A stretch of DNA of 64,000 bases from an uncultured Candidatus Saccharibacteria bacterium (GCA_964365955.1 CAYISA010000001.1:18607-82606), one strand, 5' to 3'. Counted from the stretch's first letter, positions 9,116 through 29,652 are shown. The notes: generated by a model not told the origin, from the letters alone. A program made the numbers and translations.

Positions 9116-10117
9116 GTGGTATATAATAAATGTATGAAGTGGTTTCGCGTCCTATTTTGGATTTTTGTTGCCGTTGCGGTGCTACTGGCTCTTTTCCTTG
9201 CGTTTTATAAACCATCCGAAACCGCCCGTGCCGCCGGCACGAATATCAGCGCTTTTGATAGCGAACGTTTTGCATGGAACGACATGATTGGCTGGATCGA
9301 TTTTTACGGAACCAATGCCGTGATGGTGGGGACAAGTTCCATTACGGGTTACGCGAGTTCCGCGGCGGGAATTGTCGCGCTCGACTGTTCAACCGCGCCA
9401 GGCGGCTGTGGTGCGTGGAATTATGGCGTCTGCAACGGACGCGACTTAGCCCACCAAACCAATGGAACATGCACTACGGGAAGCGACGCGGGGAGCGGGT
9501 GGCTCTCCGGATACGCCTGGAACGATCTTGCGGGCTGGATTAGTTTTAGTTGCGCGAACCGTGGTGGATATCCTTGCACGGGTGAACAAGTGCGGATTCT
9601 CCCCGATGGGACCTTTGATGGATGGGCGTGGAGCGATTCGGTTGGCTGGATCAGTTTTAACTGCGCGAACACGGCGCAAGGATGCACCTCTCCCGGGCAC
9701 GACTATAAAGTAAAAAGCACATGGACCGCCTCGAATGCAGTCGGATATTTGGAATCTTCTGTATTTGACACGCAGATCCAAGGCGGCGCCATACTGAATA
9801 GTATCCTCTGGAAAGAAGGGGCACCGTCCGTGGGCACGTGCGTAAGTTTCCAAACCGCGGGATCGAATAACCCCGCAGGACCGTGGAACTTTTCGGGTCC
9901 CAGCGGAGACAGCAACGCGTACTATGGCGCCTCGTGCGATGCGGCAAGTGGAATTGCCGGAGGAACCGGGTGCGCCCCCAAAAACACATCCATCTGTGTG
10001 AATCCCCTCTATACGCAGAACTACAGATATGTAAAATATAAGGTAAGGCTCCAAAGCGATACCGCGCAGACAACTACGCCCGTCATTACCGATATCATTT
10101 TGAACTGGAGCCGCTAA
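9116..10117 (+). CDS. secreted repeat protein with AWND.xGWIxF repeats and a conserved C-terminal module shared with the giant protein 24085..29652
   Basis: TM/signal VLFWIFVAVAVLLALFLAF. Repeats FAWNDMIGWIDF, YAWNDLAGWISFSCAN, WAWSDSVGWISFNCAN. C-terminus NYRYVKYKVRLQSDTAQTTTPVITDIILNWSR. Confidence 0.6.
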   Translation: MVYNKCMKWFRVLFWIFVAVAVLLALFLAFYKPSETARAAGTNISAFDSERFAWNDMIGWIDFYGTNAVMVGTSSITGYASSAAGIVALDCSTAPGGCGAWNYGVCNGRDLAHQTNGTCTTGSDAGSGWLSGYAWNDLAGWISFSCANRGGYPCTGEQVRILPDGTFDGWAWSDSVGWISFNCANTAQGCTSPGHDYKVKSTWTASNAVGYLESSVFDTQIQGGAILNSILWKEGAPSVGTCVSFQTAGSNNPAGPWNFSGPSGDSNAYYGASCDAASGIAGGTGCAPKNTSICVNPLYTQNYRYVKYKVRLQSDTAQTTTPVITDIILNWSR

Positions 10118-10121
10118 CACC

Positions 10122-11033
10122 ATGGCAATCCGCGAAACACAGATCGACAACAAACTGACGTGGGTGCATCTTACGTACCCGTCCCAAGAAGATTTTTCGA
10201 AACTGAAGTCTTATATCAACGCGCACCCGATCGTCTTGGACGAACTCCTCTCCGCGTCCGATCGCACACGGGTGGACACATACCCCGAGTATATTTTCAT
10301 GGTGTATCATTTCCCGATCTACGACACAAAAGAACTTTCATCGCGCCGTGCGGAAATAGACATCATCGCCTCTAAAGAAACGCTGATCACGGTTTCTTAT
10401 GAAGAGCTGGAGCCAATCCAACAATTTGAGCGGGACCTCGAAACGCGCCTCAAAAAGAAAGAGATCTCCTCTGCGGCTCATCTTCTGTACCATCTGTTAA
10501 GCGGCGTAAACGATTATTCCGTCCGCCAGCTAAAACACGTCGAAAAAAAGGTGAATTATGTAGGGGAAAAATTATTTAAACGCCAAGATCGCAAACTGCT
10601 CGAGGAAATTTCTTACATCAAGCGCGATCTACTGGAATTCTCGATTGTCGCGGTGCCACAACGGTCTACGCTTGAATCCTTGCTCCAAGTAGCGAGTGAT
10701 TTTTGGGGGCCGAGATTCCGTCCGTATTTTTTGGATCTGGTCGGAGATTTTTCCAAGATCCACTACCTTCTTGAAAATCTGAAGACGACCATTGAGTCCT
10801 ACAGCGAGACGGTATCCCAGATTTTCGGATTTAAAACGTCCGAAATTATCCGCCGCTTTTCCATTTTGGGATTCCTTACGTTCCCCCTAATCCTCTATGC
10901 CACCATCGCCCTCCAGCCGAAAGTTGAGGCGGGGATCATCAACACCGCGAACGATTTTTGGATTCAATTCGGCGTTATCGCGGTTATCATCGTGACCGCC
11001 GCTTTCTTCTTTCGAAAAAAGGGGTGGCTCTAA
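10122..11033 (+). CDS. CorA-like divalent cation transporter family protein lacking the canonical GMN motif
   Basis: N-terminal cytoplasmic pattern (WVHLTYPSQEDFSKLKSYINAHPIVLDELL..DRTRVDTYPEYIFMVYHFP) and two C-terminal TM helices ending FFFRKKGWL, typical of CorA. YATIALQPK replaces GxYGMNF. Confidence 0.55.
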   Translation: MAIRETQIDNKLTWVHLTYPSQEDFSKLKSYINAHPIVLDELLSASDRTRVDTYPEYIFMVYHFPIYDTKELSSRRAEIDIIASKETLITVSYEELEPIQQFERDLETRLKKKEISSAAHLLYHLLSGVNDYSVRQLKHVEKKVNYVGEKLFKRQDRKLLEEISYIKRDLLEFSIVAVPQRSTLESLLQVASDFWGPRFRPYFLDLVGDFSKIHYLLENLKTTIESYSETVSQIFGFKTSEIIRRFSILGFLTFPLILYATIALQPKVEAGIINTANDFWIQFGVIAVIIVTAAFFFRKKGWL

Positions 11034-11036
11034 TCT

Positions 11037-12431
11037 ATGCGGATCTATAACACGCTTTCGGGAGAAAAGGACGAACTTGAGCGGCCGAAAGGTGCGCTCA
11101 AGCTTTTTGTCTGCGGTCCTACCGTCTATGACTATATCCACCTAGGGAACGCGCTCACCTATGTTTCCTTTGATCTTTTTGCTCGCTATCTGAAATCCCA
11201 GGGATTCAGGGTTTTTTTTCTCGAAAACATAACCGATATCGATGATAAAATAATCCAAAAAGCCGAAGAAGAAAAGAAAACTCCAAGTGCAATCGCCGAT
11301 TTTTACCGTAGAGAATTTCTAAAAGACGTGAAAGCGTTGGGCATCGACACCGTGACTCGTTATGCGTCTGCAACGGATTTTATTCCGGAAATCGTAAAAC
11401 AAGTAAACGTTCTTTTAAAAAAGGGTTTTTCCTATAAAATCGAAGGCGACGGATACTATTTCGATATCTCGAAATTCTCTGACTACGGAAAACTTTCCAA
11501 GCGAACGGTTGCCCAAGCGGAGGATGGAGTTTCGCGCATTGACGAGAGTGTTCGAAAAAAAAATAAGGGTGATTTTTGCGTCTGGAAATTTTATTCTGAA
11601 GATCCCGCGGAACCGTATTGGGAAACAGAGATCGGGCGTGGCCGGCCGGGCTGGCACATTGAAGACACTGCAATCACCGAGAAATTCTTCGGCCCCCAAT
11701 ATGACATCCACGGCGGCGGAATTGATCTAAAGTTTCCGCATCATGAGGCGGAAATCGCCCAGCAGGAAGCTGCTTCGGGGAAAATTCCTTTTGTAAAGAT
11801 CTGGATGCATGGGGGGCTTCTAAACGTGGAGGGGAAAAAAATGTCAAAAAGTCTAGGCAATTTTATAACCGCTCGGGATTTTCTGAAAAAATATCCTCCG
11901 CAGCTTTTCCGCTGGATGGTTTTGAACCACCACTACCGGTCGCCACTGAACTACACGCTGGAGCTGGTTGAACAGGCAAAACAAAACATTGAAACCATAA
12001 AAACATTTTTGGAAAAACTGGTCTTTGTAGAAAAAAAATCCCGCGCTTCTAAAATCTCGGAAGTCGCGAAACTCACAAAAAAAGCGCAGACGGAAATAGA
12101 CGGCGCGCTGGACGACGACTTCAATACTCCGGTAGCGATTGCGGCATTTTTTGAATTTATGGGAGAAATCGAGAAGCGCATTTGGAATCTTTCCTCTTCC
12201 GACGCCAAACTAGCGGTTTCTTTTTCCTTACAAAACTTCGAGAATCTTGGATTTTCTTTCTCCGGCTCAAAAATTCCCCTCAAAATACGTCTTCTTACAC
12301 AGAAACGCGAGTTATCAAGAGCCCGTAAACAGTTTGTTCAATCTGATGACTTGAGAAAAGAAATCCATCGTTTAGGATACATTCTAGAAGACACGCCCTA
12401 CGGACCTTTCGTGCGGAAAGAAATAAAATAA
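11037..12431 (+). CDS. cysS: cysteine--tRNA ligase
   Basis: HIGH-type motif ([15 protein letters not shown]), KMSKS motif (KMSKSLGNF), 464 aa. Confidence 0.9.
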
Positions 12432-12454
12432 ACGGCGCGCGCTTCCTGGAATCT

Positions 12455-14409: not shown

Positions 14410-14457
14410 GTGATTGACACTAGAAAATAAAATAAGCGACTCCTTGGGGGTCGCTTA

Positions 14458-14781: not shown

Positions 14782-14896
14782 AACAAAATAGAGTGTATCA
14801 GGGAAAATCTTTTTTGCAAGCCAAACAAAAACCGCCCCTTTGCCCTTCGCCAACCGGCGAAAAAGAGGAGCGGTTTTTTGCTTCAAATCTAAAAGT

Positions 14897-15580: not shown

Positions 15581-15619
15581 GTTGAAATGATAAGCTGATT
15601 GAATTCTCGACCTTTTTAG

Positions 15620-16084
15620 GTGATTCCATTATACCACACGCTTTTCATGAAACCAAAAAACAACCTCCCTCTGTACACCAGCACCTTTGTTTTGCTGTTT
15701 TTGCACTTTGGTGGAGTCATTTTTCACTGGTATAACACTTTTTATTCCTTTGATAAAATTGTCCACGTGGCCGGTGGATTCTGGATAGCTCAAATTATCC
15801 TTTTATTGTCCACAAAACACCAAACCGTTGCCTTCCCGAAAGATAAATTTATGAGGGCGTGTATCCTACTTATCAGTATGGCGGTGCTGGTGGGAGTTTT
15901 TTGGGAATTTTTTGAAGTCTTCGTTGGTAAAATAAGCATACTCCGGTACGGTACGGGCATAGAAAATCACCTCGCGCCCACCGATACCGCTTTTGATCTT
16001 TTTTTTGATTTTCTAGGGGCCACGCTTGCCGCCATCATCTTTCTTCCAAAAAAGAACGGCTCAACTAGTTCGTCTGGAGAATAA
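15620..16084 (+). CDS. hypothetical membrane protein
   Basis: 4-5 predicted TM helices. Start may be the internal MKPKNN at 15647. Confidence 0.4.
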   Translation: MIPLYHTLFMKPKNNLPLYTSTFVLLFLHFGGVIFHWYNTFYSFDKIVHVAGGFWIAQIILLLSTKHQTVAFPKDKFMRACILLISMAVLVGVFWEFFEVFVGKISILRYGTGIENHLAPTDTAFDLFFDFLGATLAAIIFLPKKNGSTSSSGE

Positions 16085-16694
16085 TCGCGCCTGTGGACGA
16101 GGTGTAATCAATACTCGAGGAGGTAGCGAATGTGCTGGTCGTACCCGTTACCACCTGTTCCCCCACTGGACCGGTGGACCAATCCGTCTGTGTATACACA
16201 TTGTTCAGAAAACGGGAAAGATAGATCGTCTGCGAAGACGAGTCCGAGGTCCCTTCAAGATCCGTCCAACTCACCGTGATAATTGCTTTAAGTGTTGAGG
16301 GATCATAATATCCGCCGCTTGTCACAATATCTCCCGTTGAAGTTGAGCGATAAATGGGGCTAAGAGAAAACGAATGGGTGTAGGTGATGTTATTTAAAGG
16401 TGTTGTCGCGGTTCCCGCCGAACCATACACAATCCACTTCCCCGCGCTCGTTGTCGTAAAATACGCCGTGCTTGTCGCAAGGCCGCTAATATTATGCCAA
16501 TCCTCGCGCGCGATAGCGCGGAGCGCTTCAAGTTCTTCTTTCGCCAAAAATGCTCCCGCCCCTGCAGCACGCGTCTGGGGTACCGCCCGCAAAGATATCG
16601 AGGAAATGGAAGCTACGGATAGGCTGACGAGCACTAAAATAAGTGATGCGATAAGGATTTCCACAAGCACTTGACCGTTTTTTTTGTTTCCCAT
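16065..16694 (-). CDS. pseudopilin (type IV pilin-like, non-canonical GQVLVE N-terminus)
   Basis: N-terminus KKNGQVLVEILIASLILVLVSL has Gly and Glu+5 spacing of a class III signal. Thr/Ser-rich C-terminal part. Confidence 0.55.
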   Translation of the reverse strand: MGNKKNGQVLVEILIASLILVLVSLSVASISSISLRAVPQTRAAGAGAFLAKEELEALRAIAREDWHNISGLATSTAYFTTTSAGKWIVYGSAGTATTPLNNITYTHSFSLSPIYRSTSTGDIVTSGGYYDPSTLKAIITVSWTDLEGTSDSSSQTIYLSRFLNNVYTQTDWSTGPVGEQVVTGTTSTFATSSSIDYTSSTGAIILQTN

Positions 16695-16773
16695 ACCCTT
16701 TTCAATCTATACTACCACACATAGAATTATCCACACATTCCTTTTCTATTCTCAAAGAATGGAGCTATACTAA

Positions 16774-17439
16774 ATGCATCATTACAAGGTCGATTTAACT
16801 TTTCCTTTATTGATCATGTTAAAAACACAAGAAAAGAGGGGGTTTACGCTTATTGAGCTGATTATTTCCATCGCGATTTTGGCAATTTTAGTCGCGGTTC
16901 TGGTAGTCGCAATCAACCCCGCTGAACAGCTGGCACGCTCCCGAGACGCAAAACGCGTTGCAGACCTTGATGCATTGAAATCTGCTTTAAACTTGTATCT
17001 TGCGACCGCCACGACAACCGTAAACTTGGATGGACAGGGAACCGCGAATACGCTCTGTTCCGGTGGAGGCGGGGCCGACACTATTTTCTTTAATAGCACA
17101 GCCGGAGCGACAACCAGCGGTGCATATGACGTGGGTCATACGTGGGTTGCGAAATCAGCAAGCTCGGGCCAGGCTATCGGAGCGTCGGGCTGGTTACCGG
17201 CACGTTTTGATTGGACGCCCGGAGGTTCTCCGATCTCCAACCTTCCGCTTGATCCAACAACTCCGGGAGGAGATTCCACCTATTTCTATTCCTATGCGTG
17301 TGAATCAACCAACAAACAATTTAAGTTGACCGCAAGACTCGAAAGCACTTATTTTGCGAGCGATCTGAACCTTGATGGAAATGACGGCGGAGCAACCTCC
17401 TCACTTTACGAAGTGGGAAGCAATCTTACGACGCTCTAA
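16774..17439 (+). CDS. type IV pilin (candidate major pilin of cluster 1)
   Basis: KRGFTLIELIISIAILAILVAVLV class III prepilin signal. Probable start MLKTQEKRGF at 16819. Strong terminator follows. Confidence 0.8.
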   Translation: MHHYKVDLTFPLLIMLKTQEKRGFTLIELIISIAILAILVAVLVVAINPAEQLARSRDAKRVADLDALKSALNLYLATATTTVNLDGQGTANTLCSGGGGADTIFFNSTAGATTSGAYDVGHTWVAKSASSGQAIGASGWLPARFDWTPGGSPISNLPLDPTTPGGDSTYFYSYACESTNKQFKLTARLESTYFASDLNLDGNDGGATSSLYEVGSNLTTL

Positions 17440-17464
17440 CCATTTGGACGGCGTGTTTGTTCTG

Positions 17465-17497
17465 AAAAACCCCCACCTGTGGGGGTTTTTGTTTTCG
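17465..17497 (+). terminator. rho-independent terminator (aaaaacccccacctgtgggggttttt)
   Basis: Perfect GC hairpin plus T-tract directly after the pilin gene. Confidence 0.75.
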
Positions 17498-17519: not shown

Positions 17520-19229
17520 ATGGCAATCACGCTCGGAAAGATAACAGATCTACTTGTAAAAGAGGGGGTGGTAAAAAAGGAAGAGGTTGCGACATTAGAA
17601 GAAGAAGCGAAACAGTTGGGCGCGACATTTTCGCGGTACTTAATCTCGCAGGGACGGCTTACCGAAAAACGGCTGAATGAAATCATCAGTACGTTTTTGA
17701 ATGTCCCTATTTTTGACATTAAGGAGCGAGCACTGAAGCCGGAATTTGTGGAACTGCTTCCGGAAGCGATCGCGCGCCAGCGTCAACTGCTTATTGTAGA
17801 CGCCGATCAGAAGAAAAAAACGTACTCGGTCGCGATGACGGACCCCACGGACATCGACACTCTTACCTTTCTTGCAGAATACCTGAACGGAACGATTGAC
17901 CCTTACCTCATTTCGTCCGAGGATCTGCGATTCGGGTTTCGTATTTACAAAAAAAAGTCCTCCGCCGAATTCCAAAAAATCATCAATGAGCGCATCAAAG
18001 AGCTCCGCACAACACTGAAGCGCGGTGCGGAAGGGAACATCCTCGAAAATGTTCCGCTGGTTCAACTTTTTGACGCGGTCATGGATTATGCGGCTATTTT
18101 GGATGCCTCGGATATTTATTTTCAGCCCGAAGAAGAACTCTTAAGAATCCGCTTCCGTGTGGATGGACTCTTGCGGGATATTTTTATAACGGATAAGGCG
18201 ATTAACGACGGAATTATTGCGCGCGCCAAGACACTTTCGGCACTGCGTATTGACGAACACGTGAAACCCCAGGACGGACGCTTCCGGTTCCGAACGAGCG
18301 ATACCGATCTGGATATCCGCGTTGCCATCATGCCGACATTTTTTGGCGAGAAACTGACACTCCGCCTTTTGGCGGGATCGCAATCGTTCCTCACCTTTGA
18401 AGAATTGGGTGTGAGCGATGTGATGGCTCAAAAACTCTATCAGACCGTCAAGCGCCCCTACGGAATGCTCTTGAGCGCCGGTCCTACCGGCTCCGGAAAG
18501 ACGACAACTATTTACAGTATTCTGACTCTTCTGAACCGACCCGAGGTTCATATCGCAACCATCGAAGATCCTATTGAATACATGATTCCGAACGTAAGCC
18601 AAACACAGGTGAATGTACAGGCAAATATTACGTTTGCGTCCGGGCTCCGCGCGCTCCTACGCCACAGTCCCGACGTTATTTTGATCGGTGAAACGCGCGA
18701 CGCGGAAACGGCCTCTATTTCAATTAATGCGGCGCTGACCGGCCATCTTTTGATTTCGAGCATCCACACCAATAATGCCCCGAGCGCGGTGGTGCGACTC
18801 CTGGACCTTGGCATTCCGTCTTTCCTTATAGCATCTACTTTGAACGCGGTGGTGGCACAACGCCTGGGAAGAAAAATCTGCCAGAACTGCATTGAGTCGT
18901 ATCCCACGCCTCCCAGCATCGCGAAACAGATACAAGAAGAGTTTGCGCGAGCGGGTAAAAAGAATCCGCCTCCCAAAAAACTCTACCGCGGAAAAGGATG
19001 CACAATCTGCGATAACACGGGGTACAAGGGTCGCACTGGTATTTTCGAAATTTTGGTCGTGAGCGAGAAAATTCGCGACATCATCGCAGGAACCCATTTC
19101 ACGCTCGACTCGCTTTCGGAAATGGCACGCGCGGAAGGAATGACCACGATGTTTGAAGACGGACTCGAAAAAGTGGAGCGCGGCGTTACCACTATTGAAG
19201 AACTATTCCGCATCATGAGCGCGGAATAA
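17520..19229 (+). CDS. pilB: type IV pilus assembly ATPase PilB/GspE (copy 1)
   Basis: N-terminal GspII-like domain, Walker A LSAGPTGSGKTTT, Asp/His boxes, tetra-Cys (CQNC...CTIC). 569 aa. Confidence 0.9.
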   Translation: MAITLGKITDLLVKEGVVKKEEVATLEEEAKQLGATFSRYLISQGRLTEKRLNEIISTFLNVPIFDIKERALKPEFVELLPEAIARQRQLLIVDADQKKKTYSVAMTDPTDIDTLTFLAEYLNGTIDPYLISSEDLRFGFRIYKKKSSAEFQKIINERIKELRTTLKRGAEGNILENVPLVQLFDAVMDYAAILDASDIYFQPEEELLRIRFRVDGLLRDIFITDKAINDGIIARAKTLSALRIDEHVKPQDGRFRFRTSDTDLDIRVAIMPTFFGEKLTLRLLAGSQSFLTFEELGVSDVMAQKLYQTVKRPYGMLLSAGPTGSGKTTTIYSILTLLNRPEVHIATIEDPIEYMIPNVSQTQVNVQANITFASGLRALLRHSPDVILIGETRDAETASISINAALTGHLLISSIHTNNAPSAVVRLLDLGIPSFLIASTLNAVVAQRLGRKICQNCIESYPTPPSIAKQIQEEFARAGKKNPPPKKLYRGKGCTICDNTGYKGRTGIFEILVVSEKIRDIIAGTHFTLDSLSEMARAEGMTTMFEDGLEKVERGVTTIEELFRIMSAE

Positions 19230-19235
19230 TAACTC

Positions 19236-20459
19236 ATGGCACGCTTTTCTTACGTCGCTCAAAATTCTGAAAATGAAATTAGCAAGGGAGTGATTGAGGC
19301 TCCCACGCACAGTGAAGCTGTACGTGTTTTGGTACGCAAGGGCCTTTCCCCTATTAAACTGGAGGTGTTTAAGGACGCGGGTGAAAAAAATAAAACGCTC
19401 CCCATTACTATTTCATTCCGGAAAAATCTGACGCTCTTTGACCAAATCAATATCCTGCGCCACCTAGGAACAATCCTGAACACCGGCACTGATCTTCTCT
19501 CGGGTCTCGATATCATCGCGAAAGACGCTATCAACCCATTGGTACAGAAAATACTTTACGATGTAAAAGAGCGCGTGGGACGCGGTGAGCGTTTTTCTGA
19601 CGCGATCGAAAAATGGAAGAGCCAGTTCAGCCCCATTTTTGTAAGTCTTGTACGCGCCGGAGAATCATCTGGAACGCTTCCAAAAACGCTGATTAGCTAC
19701 GCGCAAGAACTCCGAAAAGACTATTCGTTTTTCAGAAAACTTCGGAGCGCGGTAACTTATCCGGTTATTCTGGTGGTCGCGGTTGTTGCAATGATTCTTA
19801 TTCTTATCTCTATTGTTGTGCCGCGTTTAAAACAGCTTTTTTCCACTACGCGCGCCGCACCTCCCTTTTATACGAAATTTTTTATCGCTGTATCGGATTT
19901 TTGGCTCGCTCATCTATGGACGATCCTGGGAATTTTGGCAATTTGCGCGGTCGCGTTGATGATTGCGTTTCGTAAAAAAACGCTTCGTGAGAAATTAATG
20001 GAAATTCTTTGGTATTTCCCGGTCCTAAAAAAAATAAACAGGAATCTTATTCTTTCCCGATTCACTAAAACGATTGCGAACCTGATTGATGCGGGATTTT
20101 CTCTAAAAGAAGCTCTCCACACAACCGAAGAAGTAGTGGGACCGAAACACAGAAAAGCGCTCAAAGAAATTGCGGAAGCAAAACTAGCAAAAGGTGTGGA
20201 ATTTTCTGAGGCACTAAAATCCTACGAAGATCTTTTTCCGCGTATTTTAGTGAGCGTGATAGCAACCGGCGAAAAAAGTGGACAGCTTTCTTCCGTGCTT
20301 CTCCAGATGGGCGAGTTCTATGAGGAAGAAGTTTTGTATTCATTAGAACTCTTCTTGACGCTCATTGAACCATTGCTTCTTGTCTTTGTGGGTCTGGTTG
20401 TGGGGCTAATGGCTGCATCTATTATTTCTCCGATTTACAGCTTAATCGGCCACTTCTAA
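19236..20459 (+). CDS. pilC: type IV pilus platform protein PilC/GspF (copy 1)
   Basis: Two GspF repeats, 3 TM helices, 407 aa, immediately downstream of pilB. Confidence 0.85.
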   Translation: MARFSYVAQNSENEISKGVIEAPTHSEAVRVLVRKGLSPIKLEVFKDAGEKNKTLPITISFRKNLTLFDQINILRHLGTILNTGTDLLSGLDIIAKDAINPLVQKILYDVKERVGRGERFSDAIEKWKSQFSPIFVSLVRAGESSGTLPKTLISYAQELRKDYSFFRKLRSAVTYPVILVVAVVAMILILISIVVPRLKQLFSTTRAAPPFYTKFFIAVSDFWLAHLWTILGILAICAVALMIAFRKKTLREKLMEILWYFPVLKKINRNLILSRFTKTIANLIDAGFSLKEALHTTEEVVGPKHRKALKEIAEAKLAKGVEFSEALKSYEDLFPRILVSVIATGEKSGQLSSVLLQMGEFYEEEVLYSLELFLTLIEPLLLVFVGLVVGLMAASIISPIYSLIGHF

Positions 20460-20461: not shown

Positions 20462-20932
20462 TTACTCCACTGAAACTTTCCCTTCTGCCGAGACGGAAAC
20501 GGTTTTTGTTTTAGAGGCATCCGTGGCAAGTTTAAACTGCACCGATGTGCCGGTTGCAATCGTTCCGCTCAATTTTGTAAATAGGATCTCCGTGCTGCTC
20601 CCCTGCGAGAGCGTCGCGTAACGCACCAACGTTCCAAGATTAAAAACGGTGCTTGATGCACTTACATAAGTGGATCCTGGGAAAATCGCATAAAAAGGTG
20701 TTGTAGTGGCATTCTCAAAATGAACACCCCAAGCCAAACCGTCGACGCCAGCAAAGGCGCGACCGCGTGCTTCTCGCACTCTGGTTGCCACTCCCTGCGC
20801 TTCCGACTCAAGAGAACCGATTTCCTGATTTTTGAACATCAGAAGAGCAGCACTCCCCGCAATGCCGAGAAACAGCACAACAATAATAAGCTCGATGAGC
20901 GAAAAACCCGCTTTCTGATTGCGCGTGTGCAT
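20462..20932 (-). CDS. pseudopilin (GspH/FimT-like)
   Basis: QKAGFSLIELIIVVLFLGIAG class III signal. Start taken at MHTRNQ (20932); the track ORF extends to 21055 with an unlikely extension. Confidence 0.7.
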   Translation of the reverse strand: MHTRNQKAGFSLIELIIVVLFLGIAGSAALLMFKNQEIGSLESEAQGVATRVREARGRAFAGVDGLAWGVHFENATTTPFYAIFPGSTYVSASSTVFNLGTLVRYATLSQGSSTEILFTKLSGTIATGTSVQFKLATDASKTKTVSVSAEGKVSVE

Positions 20933-21136
20933 ATTAATCCTGAACTTTTTCAATTTGGAAGGCGGGGAGCTGATGTGCGGGCGCTTTCGGCACCCGAAAC
21001 GCCATGAGTCCCTCCCGCACGACAAACTGCACAAGGAACGCCGCACATACCACAAGAATAATCACGTACACAAGTGCCGCGGCTCCTAAATAAGATTCGA
21101 AATTTTTTGATTTATAAAAACGTTGCAACATAACCA

Positions 21137-21724
21137 TTATTCTCCCCGCGTAAAGATAGTACCTGAAAATGCCATCCGAAAATTTCCTCCCGATGGGGCA
21201 AACGACCATTGCCGAATCTGGATCGTGGTCTCCAATCCTTCCACCGCAATAAGAAAATTACTAAGCGCAGTGATGTTTCCTTCCGCTTTGGCGGAAAATT
21301 CGAATCCCCCACCTCCGGGGACAACCCCCGGGAGTTCAACACCCAGAGAAATTTCAAGCGGAAACCCGTACTGGAGCGCCAACGCCCGCACTAAAGGAAA
21401 AATCTTCGTGGGCACGTCAATGGAAAGAGGGAGGGATTTTTCGAGCTCGCCGCGCAGAGCGTTCGCAATCGGACGTTTTTTATTCAACTCCGCAATCTCG
21501 TCGAATTGTTCTAAAACGCGGGCGAATTCACCTTTCGCATTATCCGCCTGTGCCACTTCTTTTTTGATCAGCAAAGAAAGCACAACAAGCGCGACCGCAG
21601 AGAGCGTCAGAATCATTCCGAAGATCACCAGCGTAAATCCAACGCCTTGTCCGAATTTTTGTGTTCCTGGCTGTTCCGGCTTCGGTATGGTTTCTGTTTT
21701 TTTTATATTTTTTTCGTTTTCCAT
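21137..21724 (-). CDS. PilO-like pilus assembly protein
   Basis: Single N-terminal TM (FTLVIFGMILTLSAVALVVLSLLI), then a coiled-coil and a C-terminal domain. Directly downstream of the pilM-pilN fusion. Confidence 0.55.
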   Translation of the reverse strand: MENEKNIKKTETIPKPEQPGTQKFGQGVGFTLVIFGMILTLSAVALVVLSLLIKKEVAQADNAKGEFARVLEQFDEIAELNKKRPIANALRGELEKSLPLSIDVPTKIFPLVRALALQYGFPLEISLGVELPGVVPGGGGFEFSAKAEGNITALSNFLIAVEGLETTIQIRQWSFAPSGGNFRMAFSGTIFTRGE

Positions 21725-21730
21725 AGGCGA

Positions 21731-23206
21731 TTAAAGGCGTAATAATGCATTAAGAGTAAGGTTTTTTTCGGGTGCCAAGTCTGTGAGCGGGATAGAGACC
21801 TCCGTGACAATCTTTTGTGATTCCATGCGCCGCTTGAACTCCAAGATAGAATCGCGCGAAGCGGCGGTAAACACGCCTGCGATACCCTCATTCGCGGAAG
21901 AAAGACTGGTTATTCCCACTCCCGTTTCGGCGGCAATCTTAGCAATCGCTCCGATCCGCTTCCCCGCGACGGTCTGAAGATTTTTTGCTGCTCGAAACGC
22001 ATCCACTAGCGCGTTAAATTTTTGCGCCTCATCGATCACTGGTTGGGACTGTGGAACCAATCGTTCAAAAATAGCACTTTGATTTCGAATATCGCGATTT
22101 AATGTGGCATTTTGATATTTTAAAAACGCAAACATGCCCGCAAATGCCAGCAAAAAGGAAAATGTATAGACAAAGAGAATTTTTATCCAGAGATTCAGCG
22201 TACGCAGAGAAAGGTTTTCCTGATATCGCCCTCCGAACTCCGACGGAATGAGATTAATCGAAATGTCCGCCGCCGCATAAGGCCGGAATGCGGCGCCATG
22301 GGCGATTAAAAGACGAGGATCGGAATACGCGGGCCGCGAATCCGGAAGAAACGGTTGTGTCGGAATACCGGTAATGGTACGAATAGAAGAGATAACACCC
22401 TCGCGGTTCACGCGGTCAAAAACAAAAATGCGCTCGATAGAAAATTTCAGGTTCGACTCAACAAAACTGGTGAGCTGGCGAATTTTTCCTTCCAACACTT
22501 TAGTGGCTTCTTCTTCGCCCGCGACCGGATGCAAAAAATGTGCCACAACCACACCCTTAAAAAACACAGCGAACTCGATTCCGTCTTCGTCAATTAAGGC
22601 GAAAATAAACGATGGCACACTTGCCTGATCCACAAACTTCGCAAGACTCAAAATGTGGAACTCTATTGCCCCCACTCTCCATCGCTCACCGGAAGTAATC
22701 TGTAGGTAATTCCGGATGGTTTTCTTGTTCACCGCTACGATAAAAACAATATGTTCCTCTTTCTCCGGAATATAAGTTGATGTCCAATCGATATGGGCGT
22801 CTTCGATCGGCCACGGAAGAGAAGCTTCGGCTTTTAGCATGACGGCATTTTTAAGTTCTTCCGCATCCATTTCCGGGAACACTACCGTTTCGGTGTACAT
22901 CTTGTGGGAAGGAATCGAAAGAACGAATACCGGCTCCACGGTAAATTTAAAATGTCGGGCGGGAACGGTTCCTAAGAGCGCTTTAATACCCGTCCGTACC
23001 GGAACAGGGTCCGAAATTTCTCCGTGCTCGATGGATGCCTCCGGGACGTCGTAGATACCCGAAGAGAGGACGGAAATTTTATCGCCGTGCCGAAGCGTTG
23101 CAACACCCGCAATGTGCTTGTCCTGAATATCCAACCCCACCAACACAAATTTGGGAAACACCAACCGTGAAATTTTTCTTAGTATTTTTTCAAGCGCTTC
23201 TTTCAT
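21731..23206 (-). CDS. PilM-PilN fusion protein
   Basis: N-terminal actin-like ATPase fold (VGLDIQDKHIAGV...) of ~330 aa, then a TM helix (LWIKILFVYTFSFLLAFAGMFAFL) and a PilN-like periplasmic tail. 491 aa. Confidence 0.7.
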   Translation of the reverse strand: MKEALEKILRKISRLVFPKFVLVGLDIQDKHIAGVATLRHGDKISVLSSGIYDVPEASIEHGEISDPVPVRTGIKALLGTVPARHFKFTVEPVFVLSIPSHKMYTETVVFPEMDAEELKNAVMLKAEASLPWPIEDAHIDWTSTYIPEKEEHIVFIVAVNKKTIRNYLQITSGERWRVGAIEFHILSLAKFVDQASVPSFIFALIDEDGIEFAVFFKGVVVAHFLHPVAGEEEATKVLEGKIRQLTSFVESNLKFSIERIFVFDRVNREGVISSIRTITGIPTQPFLPDSRPAYSDPRLLIAHGAAFRPYAAADISINLIPSEFGGRYQENLSLRTLNLWIKILFVYTFSFLLAFAGMFAFLKYQNATLNRDIRNQSAIFERLVPQSQPVIDEAQKFNALVDAFRAAKNLQTVAGKRIGAIAKIAAETGVGITSLSSANEGIAGVFTAASRDSILEFKRRMESQKIVTEVSIPLTDLAPEKNLTLNALLRL

Positions 23207-23208
23207 GT

Positions 23209-23601
23209 CTACTGGTTGTTTTTTGAAATAGTTGTGATGACCCCATTGCTATCGATTGTTATGGACGCACGCAACGAACGTTTAATCGTCCCCAAGGGTT
23301 TCGCTACGGTAGAGGTTGCCACCACAACAACCGGGTTTCCCTGCGTTACCGAGATATCGGTCGTGGAACCGTCCGACTCTGTAAGCGTATAACTTCCAGC
23401 GTAATCTTTATTACGCGCGAGCTTCAGTGTTGCGTCTTGTATACCCGTTTCCGCAAGCGCCTGTGCTACTTCTGCCGTTCGTTCTGAAAATCCTGTAAAT
23501 ACCGAGGTGCCGCTTTGGATGCCCATTAAGATGCTTACGCTCAAAAGAAAAAGCGTGATAACAAGAACGGTGGCAAGCGATACGATGCCGCGATTCTTCA
23601 T
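23209..23601 (-). CDS. pilus-associated minor pilin-like protein (PilX/GspK-like, tentative)
   Basis: N-terminal hydrophobic anchor GIVSLATVLVITLFLLSVSILMGI, small Thr-rich body. Start overlaps the stop of the upstream pseudopilin by 4 nt. Confidence 0.45.
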   Translation of the reverse strand: MKNRGIVSLATVLVITLFLLSVSILMGIQSGTSVFTGFSERTAEVAQALAETGIQDATLKLARNKDYAGSYTLTESDGSTTDISVTQGNPVVVVATSTVAKPLGTIKRSLRASITIDSNGVITTISKNNQ

Positions 23602-24095
23602 AGGGAAAGCGCTGCTGTCTCCAATGTGTAGAGCGATTTTGTATCAGCGGCGCTCCCTTCATTATACCCTCCCGTGATGCGGATTTGAACGGATGAGGTC
23701 GCAGTTCCTTGGGAACTGGTGTTGTTAAGTTTTGTAAAAGAAAGTGCGGTTACATAAATTGTGGAAGGAGTGACGGCGACAGCTGTACCGGTCCCTTCCT
23801 GCATCATCAGAGCTCCGCTTGCAAGCGAAAACACCGTGGGATTTTTGGTACTGTCGGACATCTTAAGATTCAGCGTCGTCGAGGCACCGTTGATATCCGT
23901 CGCCGTATAAACCTTATCAACCATCTGTTGTAATGCCTGCTGCACTCCGCTTTGCGCTTCCGTTAACCGATTGGTGGTGTCTTTGGTGCGAAGCGCAAAA
24001 TCGAACACGGTGGCGCCGAGGGTCGCGACAATCGCAAAGATGACGATATAAATCATCATTTCAATCAGCGTAAATCCCGATCGCTTATTTTGCAT
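23598..24095 (-). CDS. pseudopilin (PilW/GspJ-like)
   Basis: KRSGFTLIEMMIYIVIFAIVATLG class III signal. 165 aa. Confidence 0.75.
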   Translation of the reverse strand: MQNKRSGFTLIEMMIYIVIFAIVATLGATVFDFALRTKDTTNRLTEAQSGVQQALQQMVDKVYTATDINGASTTLNLKMSDSTKNPTVFSLASGALMMQEGTGTAVAVTPSTIYVTALSFTKLNNTSSQGTATSSVQIRITGGYNEGSAADTKSLYTLETAALSL

Positions 24096-27000
24096 AATTT
24101 AAAATAATATCCGTGACCGTGGGTGTTGTGGAACTGCTTGTGGTCTCTAAAAACACCTTGTACCGAATATACCGCTTGTTCTGCTGACACACTGCTTTTA
24201 GTTCCACCGCGGTGTTGGGTTCGCTGGTGCCGGTCGGCGGATAATAGGAATTCGAATCGCAGGCGACGGATGGGTTATTCGAACCTGATCCATTCCATGC
24301 GGTATAGGTCCACGGACTCGATGTGGTATCCGACCCCGCAAACTGGAATTTTACCGTTGTGTTGGTTGGGCGCGTCCCCTGCCAGGTAATGGAGTTCGGC
24401 GCCGTGCCGCTTGCCACCGCCGTATCGTAAATAACGGAGGTGAGTGATGAAGAAGTGGCGTACCCCTGCGAAACCGTTAATGTCGTCACGCTTGCCGCGG
24501 TGCTGGTGGGACCATTTCCGTAACTATTCACTCCCATCACTTTATACCAGTAGGTTGTGCTTTGGGTAAGCCCCGTATCGGTGGAAGATGTAATCGTGGT
24601 CGAGGCCACTAGAACATAGATTCCTCCGGAGCTTGTTGAACGGAAAAGATTGTACGAAGTCGTGCTGGATGCCGCGGTCCAGTTTACCACCACGGAAACG
24701 CCCGTTACATACGGAAATGTTGGCGTTCCCGGAGTTCCCGGAAGCGGCCAGATCCAACAACTATTCCCTCCGCTATCCAAAGAATCATCTGTCACGGAGA
24801 TACTTCCGCTTCCGCACGCGTCTGAATCTTTAACGTCCGTCGACGAAACAATTTTGGCGCCCGCAACCGTTAACAACCACGGTGATCCCGCAGAAGAACT
24901 CCTTACCCCAACCCGCGATGTGGTCGCCTGTCCGTTCCAATTTAAGCTATTAAAAGTGTACGTACTACCCGCGTTGAAACGCACGGTGGTAGATGCGGTC
25001 ACAATCGTGGATGTCGCAACGGTCGTTGCGTCAGCCGTCAAGCGGATTGCCGGAGCCGCAAGTGTTCCGGAATTGTTCGAAAATGCAAGATGATTGAACG
25101 CGGAAGTTCCTACCTCCATCGGTCCCATGCTCCCTGTAAGCGTTTGTGCGGACGTTCCGTTGAATGTCACCTGCCCGCTATTGTGCGTAAAGGTGCCATT
25201 ATTCGTGTAATTACCTCCTATTGAAATAGTCCTGACAGCGTTCGCCTTGAATGTGGAACTTGTGGCGATAAGCATCGCGCCCGTCACACTGATCGTTGTA
25301 TTATTCGGACTTGCGTCTACTACTCCCGTATGCGTTCCGTCTCCTGCCGTAAGTTGCCCCCCGACAATAAAAGTACCAGCCGCAAATTGATGCGCGGAAG
25401 TACTGCTCGGCATAACATCTAGATTGTAATAGGTAGCGACGGTAATCGTTGTGACAGCAGCGCCGTTATATTTTACCTTTCCTGTACCTGCGGAAAACGC
25501 CAAACTCACGGGCGATTCGTTGATCACAAAAGGTGTGCCGCTTGAAGCAAAGGTAATAGTGTAGCTCGATCCAGCAAGCGTATTAGTGCCGTTTGAAGAA
25601 TCATTGATAGTGAGAATGTTGTTGACCGTCGTGTCGCCGGAAAATGTATATGTGGTCGTGGCGGTCGACGTTCCGACCTGTAAATTGTAGTAGGGGTTTG
25701 CTGTAACCATCGTGCTTGTCGTTTGGCCTGCATATACAACCGTGCTCGTGCCCGCTTGGAACGTGATTGTGTCCGATACAACCATCGGCGTCCCCGTACC
25801 AGAAAATTGTATTGTGCGGCCGCGTGCGTAAATATCGGCGCTCGGATTCATCGTCCATACTTTTTTCACGACAAGATTTCCAGTCCCGCCGCTTCCAAGA
25901 TATAACCTACTCCCTGCTTCATGATTGCCTCCGCAACTGGCACACGTGGTAGTTAAATTATTGAACGTCCAATCATTCGAGCCGCTTGTGGTGCCGAGTG
26001 TTCCACCCGTGGTATAAAACGTTACCGTGTGATCTACATTGGTTAAATTCACCGTACCACAGGTAGCTCCACAGGTGATAGAACTGGTTGTGGCATTCCC
26101 TATTAATTGAATATTCGCGCTTCCGTTTGAATTATCCAGCGTCCCATTCGCGACCAGAAGCGAATCAATCACTGCGGTCGAAGTTGCAAAGCTCCATCCG
26201 CCCCCCGACCCGTTGAACACCACGGTTGGAAGACTTACTTGAAAGCCCGCCGCAAGCGCTCCCGCGTTGATCATGTGCCCTGTTGAGGTGGCACCAAACG
26301 TCACGGTGCCGGTGCTCGCGCCTCCCTGTCCGTTGTTCAAATAATCGCTATTGAACGCAAAGGTTCCTCCTCCCGCAAAGGTAGCGGTTCCGGTTGCCAC
26401 TGTAAAAAGATTATTGACGGTGGAAGGACTTTGAAGCGCGAATACTTCGCTTGCATTATTCAGCGTCAGTTTATAATAGGTGGTTGAAGCCACTAATGTA
26501 TTCCCCACAGTATAATTTCCGGTAAATTGTACGGTGGAGGTCACAGCATTAAAAGTTCCGGAGAGTAAAAATGGCGTGGCTACATTCCCGACATTCGAGA
26601 GCGTCCATGTCTTTCCGCCCGCCGAAAACGTATGCCCCGCAGAAACAGTAAGCACACCGCTCACTGTCATCGCGCCCGCGCCTGTTGATGTGGTCGTCTG
26701 CGAGGAACCGTTTACGGTAAGGCTGGAAAAAGTCCAGTTGGTTGCACCACCTAAACTTCCGGCGCCGCTGATCGTTGCTGTCCCCCCCGTAAGTGTGACA
26801 GTTCCTGCACCGGTGATATCGCCTCCATTCACGGTAAAATTTGAGGTCCCCGCAAGCGTTCCGGCCGTCACGGTAACATCATTTGAAACCGTTGCGGCAC
26901 CTCCCAGCGTGTACGTTGCGGTACCGTTGGTGTCCAAATTCCAATAGGTTGCGGCAGTGATCGTTGTTGCGGAAGATCCACGATAACTGAACGTAGAACT

Positions 27001-29652
27001 TCCGGGAGTTGACGTCGCTCCGGTCGGGGCAATCACAAACGGCGTTCCTGACCCCAATAAATAAATTGATCCCGTTCCGCCATTTAACGTATTGGTGCCG
27101 GTCGTGGAGCTTGCAACGGTTATCGTGTTTTGGATGGTAGAATATCCGCCGGTTCCAACTCGCAACGTATAGGTAGTACTTCCGGTAGATGTTCCTACAA
27201 AAAGATCCCAATAGGTTGCGGCACCGATATTCGTACTGGTAGTGATTCCGATGTAGCGGACGGTGCTGCTTGCCGCATTAAAGACTCCGGGGTTTGGAAT
27301 CTCTCCACCCGGATATCCCTGGACCACGAAGGGAGACCCCGTGCCGGTTACGGTAATCGTCTTCGTAGAAGTCGCACTTAACGTTGCGCTTCCGCCGCCT
27401 CCGCTTGTCATGGTGATACTCGTCGCTACGATATCGCTATTCAATTGAACCGTATAGGGAGTGGATCCGTTTGTATTAATACTGATAATCCCTAAATCTT
27501 GGAGCGCCGGATTGCTGTCTTGTAATGTTTTGGTACCGCCTGGACTTAAGGTGATCGTCCCGGTTCCTTTTGTGTAGGTGAGTTGGTTGGTTCCACAAAC
27601 ACTCGTACAATCTCCGACGATAAAATTCCCCTTCACCGTGATGCTCGGATTATACGATGATGCGTCTACAGTTGCCGCGGCATCACGAAATAATCTAAAA
27701 TCACCGTTCACTGTAATTGTCTGGCCCGTTGTTGTAGCTAAATAATAAATATTTGTACTCTGGGGTTTTAAAGACAAATTAAAATAACTTGTCGCGGGGA
27801 TATCCGTAGAACCATTTCCGCTAAAAGCAACGGTGCCTGTTGTTGATGGAAGAGCCCCATAGCTTGTGATCTGAAGGGGCGTACTAATAATTCTTCCAAT
27901 CCCCGAAATCGTAAGTGTATAAGGCCCGGGTGAAAATGTATCAGTCGCACTTGAACCGGAGTTCCCAATTGTGACTCGATTTGTAACCGTTGTATCGCCT
28001 CCCAAGGTATATGTAACCGCTGAAGCATCTGCGCTTACACCAACTTGGAGGCCGTAATAAGCATCCGAAACAGCGATTGTGGTGGCGGTTGTCGCTGTAT
28101 AACTGACAGTCCCTGTTCCTCCACTTAGTGTTCCCTTGCTTGTAATTACAAAAGGCGTCCCCGAACTCGAAAGTGTAAGCGTGGCAATACTTAAGGCAAG
28201 CGTATCGGAGTTTCCCGAACCGGCATTCCCAACCGTCACGACACCTGCGGCAGTTGCGTTCCCGCCTAACGTAAAAGTGACCGCCGACGAGTCAGCTGTC
28301 GTCCCAACTCCAAAATTATAGTACGCGACCGCGGCAAGCGTGACAGAAGACGTGGCGGTGTAGTTAATCGTACTGGTACCGATTGTGAACGTGCCCGAAA
28401 CACAAAATGGTATCACGGTGTTCAATGCGCCCGTGCACGTGGCGGATGTCCCCGGGCGATTGAGTGTTATAGTATTCCCGTCGGGGGTAAACGTTCCAAT
28501 GACATACAGGGCACCCACGTTCACCGCTCCGCCGGGTTGGAATGTTTTCCCAGAAGCCACAATCACTTTCGCGGATGTTGCATTCAACACCCCTCCTGAA
28601 ACCGTAAAGGGAATATCCGTATCACTCACACTGTCATACGTTCCGACATTCGCATTAGTGATAGGTCCGGAGTCCTCATGCCGCAAAATCACGCGCCCCC
28701 TATAGACATCAATTCCGCTTAAATTCGTTCCTGAATAACGCGTTACGGTCGCGCCCACCCGCGTGGCACTTCCGTTGTCCATATAGACAGTGATCACGGT
28801 GCTTGTCGAGGGCTGTGTCATAGTAACGGTGTAGGTTCCTGGTGCTCCCGCGCTTGTAGAAGACGCCACACTCCCCCCTACTACCACTTTAACCGTGGAA
28901 GATGTCGCTGTAACCCCTTCGTCTTGATAAATCGTACCCGCAATTGTGATCGAAATCGCCGGTGGCGTGTAGGTAATTGTTGCATACACTTTAGAGAGTT
29001 GGACGTAAATTGAGTTCGAGTAAGAGCCACCGTCTCCATCATCGCAGGTTCCGTCGTCCGGGATCGTAAGCCCCACCTCAAGCGTTGAGGTGGTTCCTTT
29101 TACATAACTAATGGAGTGCGACTGGGTACTTGATGTAAATGTATCCGTCATCGTGATCGCGCTTCCGAAATCTGTCGAGGCGCCGTCCAAAACCCGGACG
29201 GATTTTGCAGTCGGATAAACGCTAATGGTCGGAGCGCTTCCCCCCGCACAAACGGAGTACTCATCAATTGCCGCATTTGCCGAAAACGTAATATCGATCG
29301 CGGTAATTGTGGAACCGACCGGAATATTGGTCCAGTCCGTTGTTGATGTAGAGAGTTTAAATGTCTGCCGCGTATTAATGATCTTACTAAAAACCGTAGT
29401 CGTATCATTGTTGTCGTTCACTTTTATATAGCAAACATTCGCGCTGCAATCCTTCAGTGGGAGTATCTGGTATGCCCACGATGCCGAGTCGTTGGTACCA
29501 TCCGCTACAGGATGGATCGCACCCGTTGTTGTTCCGTGCGCAATATACGGAATACCGCCCAAAAAAAGAAAAATGGCGGCGACAAAAAAAAATGTTCTCC
29601 GCGTTGAAGTTGCAAGCATTTTAAAGATTATAGCACACTTTTTATCCTTCAT
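24085..29652 (-). CDS. giant surface protein (1855 aa) encoded in the pilus operon; putative pilus-associated adhesin with FN3-like domain and conserved C-terminal module
   Basis: N-terminal signal/TM (FFFVAAIFLFLGGIPYIAHG). Extreme Thr/Ser/Gly content. FN3-like segment (PGTPGTPTFPYVTGVSVVVNWTAAS...YWYKVMGVNSYGNGP). C-terminus NKRYIRYKVFLETTSSSTTPTVTDIILNYAK is homologous to the C-terminus of CDS 9116..10117. The gene start overlaps the stop of pseudopilin 23598..24095 by 11 nt (24085-24095). Confidence 0.75.
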   Translation of the reverse strand: MKDKKCAIIFKMLATSTRRTFFFVAAIFLFLGGIPYIAHGTTTGAIHPVADGTNDSASWAYQILPLKDCSANVCYIKVNDNNDTTTVFSKIINTRQTFKLSTSTTDWTNIPVGSTITAIDITFSANAAIDEYSVCAGGSAPTISVYPTAKSVRVLDGASTDFGSAITMTDTFTSSTQSHSISYVKGTTSTLEVGLTIPDDGTCDDGDGGSYSNSIYVQLSKVYATITYTPPAISITIAGTIYQDEGVTATSSTVKVVVGGSVASSTSAGAPGTYTVTMTQPSTSTVITVYMDNGSATRVGATVTRYSGTNLSGIDVYRGRVILRHEDSGPITNANVGTYDSVSDTDIPFTVSGGVLNATSAKVIVASGKTFQPGGAVNVGALYVIGTFTPDGNTITLNRPGTSATCTGALNTVIPFCVSGTFTIGTSTINYTATSSVTLAAVAYYNFGVGTTADSSAVTFTLGGNATAAGVVTVGNAGSGNSDTLALSIATLTLSSSGTPFVITSKGTLSGGTGTVSYTATTATTIAVSDAYYGLQVGVSADASAVTYTLGGDTTVTNRVTIGNSGSSATDTFSPGPYTLTISGIGRIISTPLQITSYGALPSTTGTVAFSGNGSTDIPATSYFNLSLKPQSTNIYYLATTTGQTITVNGDFRLFRDAAATVDASSYNPSITVKGNFIVGDCTSVCGTNQLTYTKGTGTITLSPGGTKTLQDSNPALQDLGIISINTNGSTPYTVQLNSDIVATSITMTSGGGGSATLSATSTKTITVTGTGSPFVVQGYPGGEIPNPGVFNAASSTVRYIGITTSTNIGAATYWDLFVGTSTGSTTYTLRVGTGGYSTIQNTITVASSTTGTNTLNGGTGSIYLLGSGTPFVIAPTGATSTPGSSTFSYRGSSATTITAATYWNLDTNGTATYTLGGAATVSNDVTVTAGTLAGTSNFTVNGGDITGAGTVTLTGGTATISGAGSLGGATNWTFSSLTVNGSSQTTTSTGAGAMTVSGVLTVSAGHTFSAGGKTWTLSNVGNVATPFLLSGTFNAVTSTVQFTGNYTVGNTLVASTTYYKLTLNNASEVFALQSPSTVNNLFTVATGTATFAGGGTFAFNSDYLNNGQGGASTGTVTFGATSTGHMINAGALAAGFQVSLPTVVFNGSGGGWSFATSTAVIDSLLVANGTLDNSNGSANIQLIGNATTSSITCGATCGTVNLTNVDHTVTFYTTGGTLGTTSGSNDWTFNNLTTTCASCGGNHEAGSRLYLGSGGTGNLVVKKVWTMNPSADIYARGRTIQFSGTGTPMVVSDTITFQAGTSTVVYAGQTTSTMVTANPYYNLQVGTSTATTTYTFSGDTTVNNILTINDSSNGTNTLAGSSYTITFASSGTPFVINESPVSLAFSAGTGKVKYNGAAVTTITVATYYNLDVMPSSTSAHQFAAGTFIVGGQLTAGDGTHTGVVDASPNNTTISVTGAMLIATSSTFKANAVRTISIGGNYTNNGTFTHNSGQVTFNGTSAQTLTGSMGPMEVGTSAFNHLAFSNNSGTLAAPAIRLTADATTVATSTIVTASTTVRFNAGSTYTFNSLNWNGQATTSRVGVRSSSAGSPWLLTVAGAKIVSSTDVKDSDACGSGSISVTDDSLDSGGNSCWIWPLPGTPGTPTFPYVTGVSVVVNWTAASSTTSYNLFRSTSSGGIYVLVASTTITSSTDTGLTQSTTYWYKVMGVNSYGNGPTSTAASVTTLTVSQGYATSSSLTSVIYDTAVASGTAPNSITWQGTRPTNTTVKFQFAGSDTTSSPWTYTAWNGSGSNNPSVACDSNSYYPPTGTSEPNTAVELKAVCQQNKRYIRYKVFLETTSSSTTPTVTDIILNYAK

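Follow-up and report, generated by a model that had tools for sequence, protein, structure and literature searches.

Two predicted exported proteins, encoded in a 64,000-nucleotide stretch of DNA from an uncultured Candidatus Saccharibacteria bacterium (GCA_964365955.1, CAYISA010000001.1:18607-82606; the whole stretch is hereafter called the window), end in copies of the same C-terminal domain. Protein A is encoded on the plus strand by the open reading frame (ORF) 9116/9134..10117, in which GTG 9116 marks the upstream limit of the frame, while ATG 9134, the start chosen in public gene calls in place of GTG 9116, gives a protein of 327 amino acids (aa). Its hydrophobic N-terminus (MKWFRVLFWIFVAVAVLLALFLAFYKPSETARA, plus strand 9134..9232, read from the translation) is a Sec signal peptide or else a signal anchor; it is followed by three W-x-D-x-x-G-W-I-x-F repeats (FAWNDMIGWIDF, YAWNDLAGWISF and WAWSDSVGWISF; plus strand 9275..9658), each with a Cys-containing spacer behind it, and finally by the C-terminal domain copy A (plus strand 9731..10114), which has 128 aa and four Cys, ends in ...DIILNWSR directly before the stop codon and scores 143 bits against a profile of 46 sequences. 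The whole protein has no family match in Pfam or NCBIfam, although about 30 database representatives of 300-330 aa are built in the same way. The repeats themselves give no match to Pfam models; they are present in 32 of the 152 best carriers of the C-terminal domain, pilin-headed ones included, and because of this recurrence it has the look of another module that is not yet catalogued.

Protein B is a giant of 1855 aa (minus strand 24085..29652) with a hydrophobic N-terminus and a composition rich in Thr (19%), Ser (12%) and Gly (12%), and it is encoded by the first gene of a minor-pilin/PilM operon. Judged from its sequence, the N-terminus (…RRTFFFVAAIFLFLGGIPYIAHG/TTT, minus strand 29533..29652, read from the translation) looks Sec-type and not like a prepilin signal. 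A regular expression for the prepilin motif was negative for the N-termini of both proteins, and neither of them matches the Pfam family N_methyl. Copy B of the C-terminal domain (minus strand 24088..24462) has 125 aa, ends in ...DIILNYAK before the stop codon, carries two Cys that flank a variable loop and scores 130 bits. Directly upstream of it, a weak fibronectin-III-like segment (minus strand 24487..24732; Pfam fn3, E 0.16) falls under the curated cut-off and is suggestive only, fn3 being a confirmed partner domain in other carriers. Full-length homologues of protein B were found (P0006, P0008, P0036, P0077 and P0083), and these giants are conserved over their entire length, the N-terminal region included. 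A self-BLAST of protein B revealed no internal repeats, and a motif scan found a loosely recurring 'T-Y-Y/W-N-L' unit with irregular spacing.

The first-pass annotation described the common part of the two proteins as a C-terminal module of about 32 aa, preceded by Cys-containing linkers, on otherwise unrelated secreted proteins. Translation confirms both of the quoted C-termini, each with a stop codon directly after it, and bears out the 24085..29652 ORF, for which the strand, not stated at the time, is the minus strand, translation of the plus strand yielding nothing but stops. The shared module is likewise real, but its size had been taken too small. Residues 212-333 of protein A align to residues 1737-1855 of protein B with 43 identities in 122 positions (35%), 58% positives and a composition-adjusted BLASTP E value of 3e-14, which makes the common unit a folded domain of about 120 aa (~122-128 aa); the 32 aa correspond to its last two beta-strands, the best-conserved part, which are ~56% identical by a hand count on both tails. 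A linear sorting motif of 32 aa is thereby ruled out, and it is close to certain that the shared tail is part of an autonomous domain. The supposed linkers do not precede the module but sit inside it, in a variable loop between a GPW motif and an RYxRYK strand. The view that the two exported proteins are otherwise unrelated holds: the remainder of proteins A and B shows no significant similarity in BLASTP, and whole-protein paralogy is therefore ruled out, the resemblance being confined to the last ~122 aa. A six-frame scan with a hidden Markov model found only these two copies in the 64-kb window.

AlphaFold2, run on copy A with the 46-sequence alignment, returns a complete all-beta domain with high confidence (predicted local distance difference test, pLDDT, 92.1; predicted template-modelling score, pTM, 0.85) and five long strands at residues 4-8, 20-29, 37-45, 100-108 and 119-127. 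The predicted fold class is a jelly-roll-like beta-sandwich of ~115-128 residues. The tail had also been considered as a possible beta-strand-addition element, yet the predicted fold is complete alone (pLDDT 92), which rules out an incomplete fold in need of strand donation. Foldseek searches against the PDB returned weak neighbours only (E >=0.02, template-modelling (TM) scores of 0.4-0.58), among them lectin-like and carbohydrate-binding module (CBM) jelly-rolls, the lectin-like domain of Cwp84, the sugar-binding domain of Fbs1, the furin P domain and phage tail proteins, whereas in BFVD the neighbours were uncharacterised phage and tail proteins, with a best E value of 4.8e-4 and TM scores of 0.56-0.59. 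Over all these neighbours together, E ranges from 5e-4 to 0.1 and TM from 0.4 to 0.59, and sequence identity to the domain is 5-17%.

No model in Pfam-A or NCBIfam matches either protein or any of 46 diverse domain members scanned singly, apart from isolated weak Pfam matches of which none is consistent (one member to CBM_2, E 0.059; two to LtfC, 0.01), and no PDB sequence scored below E 0.1 in profile searches. The RYxRYK ... DIxxNW strands may be similar to the end of F5/8-C-type domains ('RYVRL ... I.E.EV.G'), a possible lead. The domain is nevertheless widespread, as further instances in databases are numerous. An exhaustive search with a five-sequence profile against 1.84 billion cluster representatives (clusters at 50% identity) recovered 1746 representatives at E<=1e-3, 747 at E<=1e-10 and 28 at E<=1e-30. 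Word-indexed homologue searches gave few matches, mostly short fragments, and the family count rests on the exhaustive profile search. The family appears to be undescribed in Pfam 2025, NCBIfam 2026, the PDB and the literature searched. As a kind, small beta-sandwich modules that tip surface or pilus proteins are already well known. Within the family, the nearest relatives of copy B are the domains of giant orthologues (76-80% identity), protein-A-type and giant-type domains each group with relatives of their own architecture, and the Cys patterns are subfamily-specific, the giant type having two Cys and copy A, like its closest relatives, four. The grouping by architecture and the Cys patterns imply that the two copies in the window are old, separate lineages and not the products of a recent duplication.

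The position of the domain was counted in the best 152 of the 1746 representatives, partner domains were scanned in 102 of them, and N-termini were surveyed in 114 N-complete proteins of >=250 aa. The enrichment at C-termini that had been anticipated for the module was found, as 141 of the 152 proteins (93%) end no more than three residues past the domain. The ending itself is stereotyped: 123 of 140 terminal copies finish in N-[WYF]-[STAN]-x, and 63 of the 140 in exactly NWSP. Internal copies only are found in 11 of the 152 proteins, most of them with several, and 13 of the 152 carry two to six copies; besides the 11, two proteins have tandem copies of which one is terminal. Since internal copies score up to 96 bits with more protein after them, a free C-terminus is not needed for the fold.

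The association with exported proteins holds as well, for at least 86% of the N-complete carriers have an export-type N-terminus. A Sec-type hydrophobic N-terminus was recognised in 67 of 114 (59%) and a prepilin-type one (G/QSLIE followed by a hydrophobic helix) in 31 of 114 (27%), which corresponds to 31 of the 152; the 16 carriers with neither signal mostly resemble truncated gene calls. The Pfam family N_methyl is significant in 7 of the 102 scanned carriers. Laminin_G_3 occurs in 23 of the 102, and the further partners are Kelch propellers, DUF2341, fn3, F5/8-C and TIG, the partner domains all being of extracellular adhesin or lectin types. Short carriers of 150-330 aa without a stalk are frequent, and the 153-aa protein P0003, from a contig that resembles candidate phyla radiation (CPR) contigs, consists of a membrane anchor and the domain and nothing else. 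Together with protein A and its syntenic homologue, P0003 places the domain on Sec-type proteins outside pilus loci. Overall, the C-terminal domain appears to be a mobile module that closes exported, presumably surface-displayed proteins with an N-terminal anchor.

Where a taxon name is given or the gene context can be read, the carriers mostly belong to Patescibacteria (CPR), tiny bacteria of groundwater. The taxon-named database relatives are labelled 'Patescibacteria group bacterium', a locus search with one domain alignment led to a single locus in a Patescibacteria metagenome-assembled genome (MAG), and the word-indexed search also returned one Saccharimonadales and one Dehalococcoidia fragment. 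The contigs that match the window come from Hainich groundwater metagenomes, and the gene content of the window fits Patescibacteria/CPR. Several internal copies of the domain were also seen in P0049, a 4434-aa FG-GAP/Calx-beta protein (contig L015, 5001..18305), whose contig carries TonB_C and GGDEF genes, with no pilus genes nearby. Because this context looks diderm, the wider domain superfamily extends beyond CPR.

The genomic surroundings of protein B tie the domain to pili. In the minus-strand operon, the protein B gene is followed by genes for a 165-aa prepilin, a 130-aa protein, a 491-aa PilM-like protein, a 195-aa single-transmembrane protein and a second prepilin. The 165-aa minor pilin (minus strand 23598..24095; MQNKRSG/FTLIEMM...) matches N_methyl with E 1.8e-9, as well as TIGR02532 and GspJ/H-like models. 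The stop codon of protein B and the ATG of this pilin overlap by 11 nt (24085..24095 on the minus strand; junction AATTATGCAAAATAA), the ATG lying within the last codons of protein B, and an identical 11-nt overlap is present at 8364..8374 of contig L010 and at 7213..7223 of contig L011. The exact overlap in three contigs suggests conserved translational coupling. The order giant, pilin, 130-aa protein, PilM-like protein is kept in the same three contigs, namely the window, L010 (with P0008) and L011 (with P0077; a Patescibacteria MAG). In addition, the pilin-headed carrier P0100 adjoins PilC, and another, P0139, has a small N_methyl protein in its neighbourhood. The proposed link to pili is thus upheld by the pilin-headed carriers and by the conserved synteny of the pilus operon.

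Downstream of the first minor pilin, the 130-aa protein (minus strand 23209..23601) has a hydrophobic N-terminus, and the PilM-like protein (minus strand 21731..23206) matches TIGR01175 (9.5e-11) and PF11104. The PilM models cover only the first ~170 residues of the latter and leave ~320 C-terminal residues without an assignment, which could be a fused PilN/O-like or a novel part; its size is kept at 491 aa in L010 and 488 aa in L011. Near the end of the operon follows the 195-aa single-transmembrane protein (minus strand 21137..21724). A plus-strand ORF (21123..21734) nearly coincides with this gene and is probably a shadow ORF, as public gene calls and the logic of the operon favour the minus-strand protein. 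The last gene encodes the second prepilin-type protein (minus-strand ORF 20462..21055; G/FSLIE). An adjoining type IV pilus cluster on the plus strand comprises a pilin (16774..17439), the PilB ATPase (17520..19229) and the PilC platform protein (19236..20459), and a further prepilin-like ORF of 209 aa lies on the minus strand at 16065..16694. The N-terminus of this ORF (MGNKKNG/QVLVEILIA...) is of the same G/Q-x-L-x-E type as those of the pilin-headed carriers, and Pfam N_methyl misses it.

Protein A is encoded outside the pilus operon. Its gene is divergent from those of two proteins (together minus strand 4765..9102), one of 181 aa that is cupredoxin-like and membrane-anchored and one of 1262 aa, and is itself followed by CorA, CysS, DnaB and RecR. 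The 1262-aa protein has no family, its only match being a sub-threshold one to the YdcK beta-solenoid repeat. Both the pairing and the CorA-CysS-DnaB-RecR order are kept around P0019 in GCA_016234345.1 (the pair at 1..2543 of contig L014), and the domain of P0019 is 50% identical to copy A.

From these observations we infer surface display, a distal position and a binding function for the domain, and we favour the reading, with a probability of roughly 0.55, that it serves for adhesion or ligand binding as a distal module of surface and pilus proteins whose anchor is N-terminal. Three kinds of N-terminus would precede it: a Sec-type signal or anchor, as in both proteins of the window, a prepilin sequence (class III) and a bare membrane anchor. 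The prepilin-headed carriers would be modular type IV pilins, and protein B, a giant non-pilin whose gene overlaps that of the first minor pilin, would represent a PilY1-like arrangement. As the anchor or export signal is N-terminal in all architectures, the C-terminal domain would be held farthest from the cell or the pilus wherever the anchor is kept, and there it may act as an adhesin or lectin-like head on pili or stalk-like proteins that contacts other cells or surfaces. It is this outermost placement in every architecture that makes a distal ligand-binding role the most likely one. The adhesin-type partners, the tandem copies, the variable, disulfide-braced loop in a conserved core and the weak lectin, CBM and phage-tail neighbours argue in the same direction, and the Cys pairs in the variable loop would fit an extracytoplasmic location. 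Precedents among published modular pilins and the TM7x minor pilin PilX1, described below, lend it support as well.

Three points weigh against this reading. The fold matches are weak, and 'lectin-like' is therefore to be understood as a resemblance in fold class only. Moreover, terminal placement in 93% of the carriers combined with a stereotyped ending goes beyond what ordinary binding modules usually show and is reminiscent of C-terminal sorting domains, for example the C-terminal domain (CTD) of type IX secretion system (T9SS) substrates. Lastly, the anchor of protein B is uncertain, and if its signal were cleaved, the C-terminal domain would be one candidate for the part that holds the protein on the pilus.

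In an unlikely alternative, the domain would attach non-pilin cargo, protein B for example, to the tip complex of minor pilins, as is supposed for the conserved C-terminal domain of PilY1/PilC, and the variable N-terminal regions would be the adhesins. The overlapping operon, probably coupled in translation, makes this attractive for protein B. The Sec-type, non-pilin nature of the giant and its 11-nt overlap with the first minor pilin, kept in L010 and L011, would suit such a role, and a conserved C-terminal domain behind variable upstream regions mirrors the logic of PilY1 (PMC8179133). However, the 31 pilin carriers among the 152 would have no need of docking, protein A and its syntenic homologue lie outside pilus operons, anchor-only proteins and tandem and internal copies exist, and P0049 carries its internal copies in a diderm-like context with no pilus genes nearby; in giants that are conserved N-terminus included, the N-terminal domain is also an equally good candidate for attachment. 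The role originally proposed for the module, that of a sorting, anchoring or pilus-incorporation signal, is not supported and comes out weakened. In its present form it would make the domain a CPR counterpart of the T9SS CTD, a fold recognised for export by the pilus machinery in the manner of a type II secretion system (T2SS) or a cell-wall or S-layer anchor, and we regard it as quite improbable. The strict terminal placement with its stereotyped ending, the export-type N-termini in front of highly diverse cargo, and a size and beta-sandwich nature comparable to the T9SS CTD speak in its favour, but there is no sequence relationship to Por_Secre_tail, both C-termini lack a hydrophobic tail and a sortase-type motif, candidate processing machinery was not identified, and internal, tandem, cargo-less and pilin-headed carriers are unexpected for a terminal tag. 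Considering the complete fold together with the prepilin-headed, anchor-only, internal and tandem carriers, the domain looks more like an autonomous one for binding or structure than like a sorting tag, and a sorting or secretion role is probably not the right one.

A purely structural role seems rather unlikely too. In such a scheme the domain would be a cap, or a folding or oligomerisation knob, that nucleates the folding or trimerisation of long stalk proteins, for which phage tail fibres, C1q heads and the knob of the adenovirus fibre are models, with binding secondary or absent. Phage tail proteins are indeed among the best structural neighbours, registration knobs typically sit strictly at the C-terminus, and protein B is long, repetitive and rich in Thr, Ser and Gly; yet many carriers are short proteins of 150-330 aa with no stalk to nucleate, and pilin-headed carriers enter the pilus as monomers. 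It is also improbable, at the level of the sorting proposal, that the domain is a recognition or attachment fold of the Patescibacterial type IV filament machinery, which would either dock non-pilin cargo at the pilus tip or mark Sec-exported proteins that the pilus system expels in T2SS fashion or displays on the surface, with ...NWSP-COOH as part of the signal. Chance, low-complexity resemblance or whole-protein paralogy would be suggested by the Thr/Ser/Gly-rich character of both proteins, but against a composition-adjusted E value that applies to the last ~122 aa alone, 1746 family members and a confident predicted fold, this explanation has a negligible probability.

The host-recognising parts of Patescibacteria are mostly unannotated. 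A life in attachment to other microbes is assumed for these bacteria, whose best-supported device for host contact is the type IV pilus (PMC11623550). Read as a distal binding module, the domain would mark the outermost end of modular pilins, PilY1-like giants and small anchored surface proteins. The family, which is recognised by neither Pfam-A nor NCBIfam, comprises at least 1746 clusters at 50% identity. Defining it could allow annotators to flag candidate host-recognition proteins across CPR genomes, and at about 120 aa, compact and modelled with confidence, the domain is experimentally tractable. Were it instead a docking or sorting fold, it would point to a surface-display pathway specific to these organisms, and the sorting or attachment reading would entail a new C-terminal-domain sorting system in bacteria that are not known to have an outer membrane.

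Among known systems, the T9SS CTD (Por_Secre_tail, PF18962/TIGR04183) resembles the domain in being a small beta-sandwich at the extreme C-terminus of diverse exported proteins, whereas the domain is longer, occurs in internal and tandem copies and is found on pilin-headed carriers. The window holds a T9SS-type CTD of its own on a 919-aa BNR/Sortilin-like protein (plus strand 29757..32516), in which Por_Secre_tail matches at ~32274..32504 with 36.8 bits over a cut-off of 27. The earlier distinction between the two modules stands, as Por_Secre_tail is found only on this protein and a relationship is ruled out by an hhalign probability of 2.1% against the window's own copy; PF18962, PF13585 (CHU_C) and TIGR04183 match neither protein A, protein B nor the 46 members. 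Among the ORFs of the 64-kb window that were scanned against general libraries, none matched a T9SS component such as PorU, PorV or SprA, and Patescibacteria are not known to have an outer membrane or a T9SS. Sortase/LPXTG, PEP-CTERM and PGF-CTERM signals are not seen in the two tails either: both end right after a beta-strand, and the NCBIfam sorting-domain models are silent.

Jelly-roll CBM (galactose-binding-domain-like) and lectin-like modules, like the jelly-roll domains of phage tail proteins, share with the domain an all-beta sandwich of similar size, and such modules are often terminal, tandem or placed beside LamG and fn3, but no relationship was found at the level of sequence, and the structural similarity stays at Foldseek E >=5e-4 and TM <=0.59. 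A related case is the minor pilin PilX1 of the cultivated Nanosynbacter lyticus TM7x, which has a C-terminal beta-jelly-roll that was reported as 'absent from NCBI CD-Search', was proposed to bind glycans and was likened by the authors to L-type (ConA-like) lectins (PMC11623550). This jelly-roll may be a LamG-type domain instead of a member of the family described here.

The closest parallels are found among pilus-associated adhesins. In Streptococcus sanguinis, the modular type IV pilins PilB and PilC carry a vWA module and a ConA-like lectin module, respectively (Raynaud et al. 2021, PMC8179133), and the grafting of binding modules onto pilins is an established strategy in which many modules have no database signature (PMC8179133). 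Like these, the domain is an extra module, not specific to pilus biology, that follows an N-terminal anchor, for presumed exposure on the pilus or close to it, with LamG and Kelch domains alongside. Unlike them, it belongs to a different, unnamed fold family, is nearly always last and also occurs on non-pilins; proteins A and B themselves lack the prepilin signal (IPR012902/PF07963) and are therefore not modular pilins. Protein B is closer to the tip adhesins PilY1/PilC of type IVa pili, being a large, Sec-type non-pilin that is encoded with minor pilins and in which a conserved domain at the C-terminus follows an upstream region that can expand. PilY1, in contrast, is defined by a C-terminal beta-propeller of ~500 aa (PF05567/IPR008707), where copy B is a beta-sandwich of ~125 aa; no PilY1 model of Pfam matches protein B, and as the propeller is absent, protein B is not a member of the PilY1 family. 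By analogy, the closest functional counterpart of the C-terminal domain would be the accessory modules found in modular type IV pilins, while protein B as a whole would resemble a PilY1-type adhesin.

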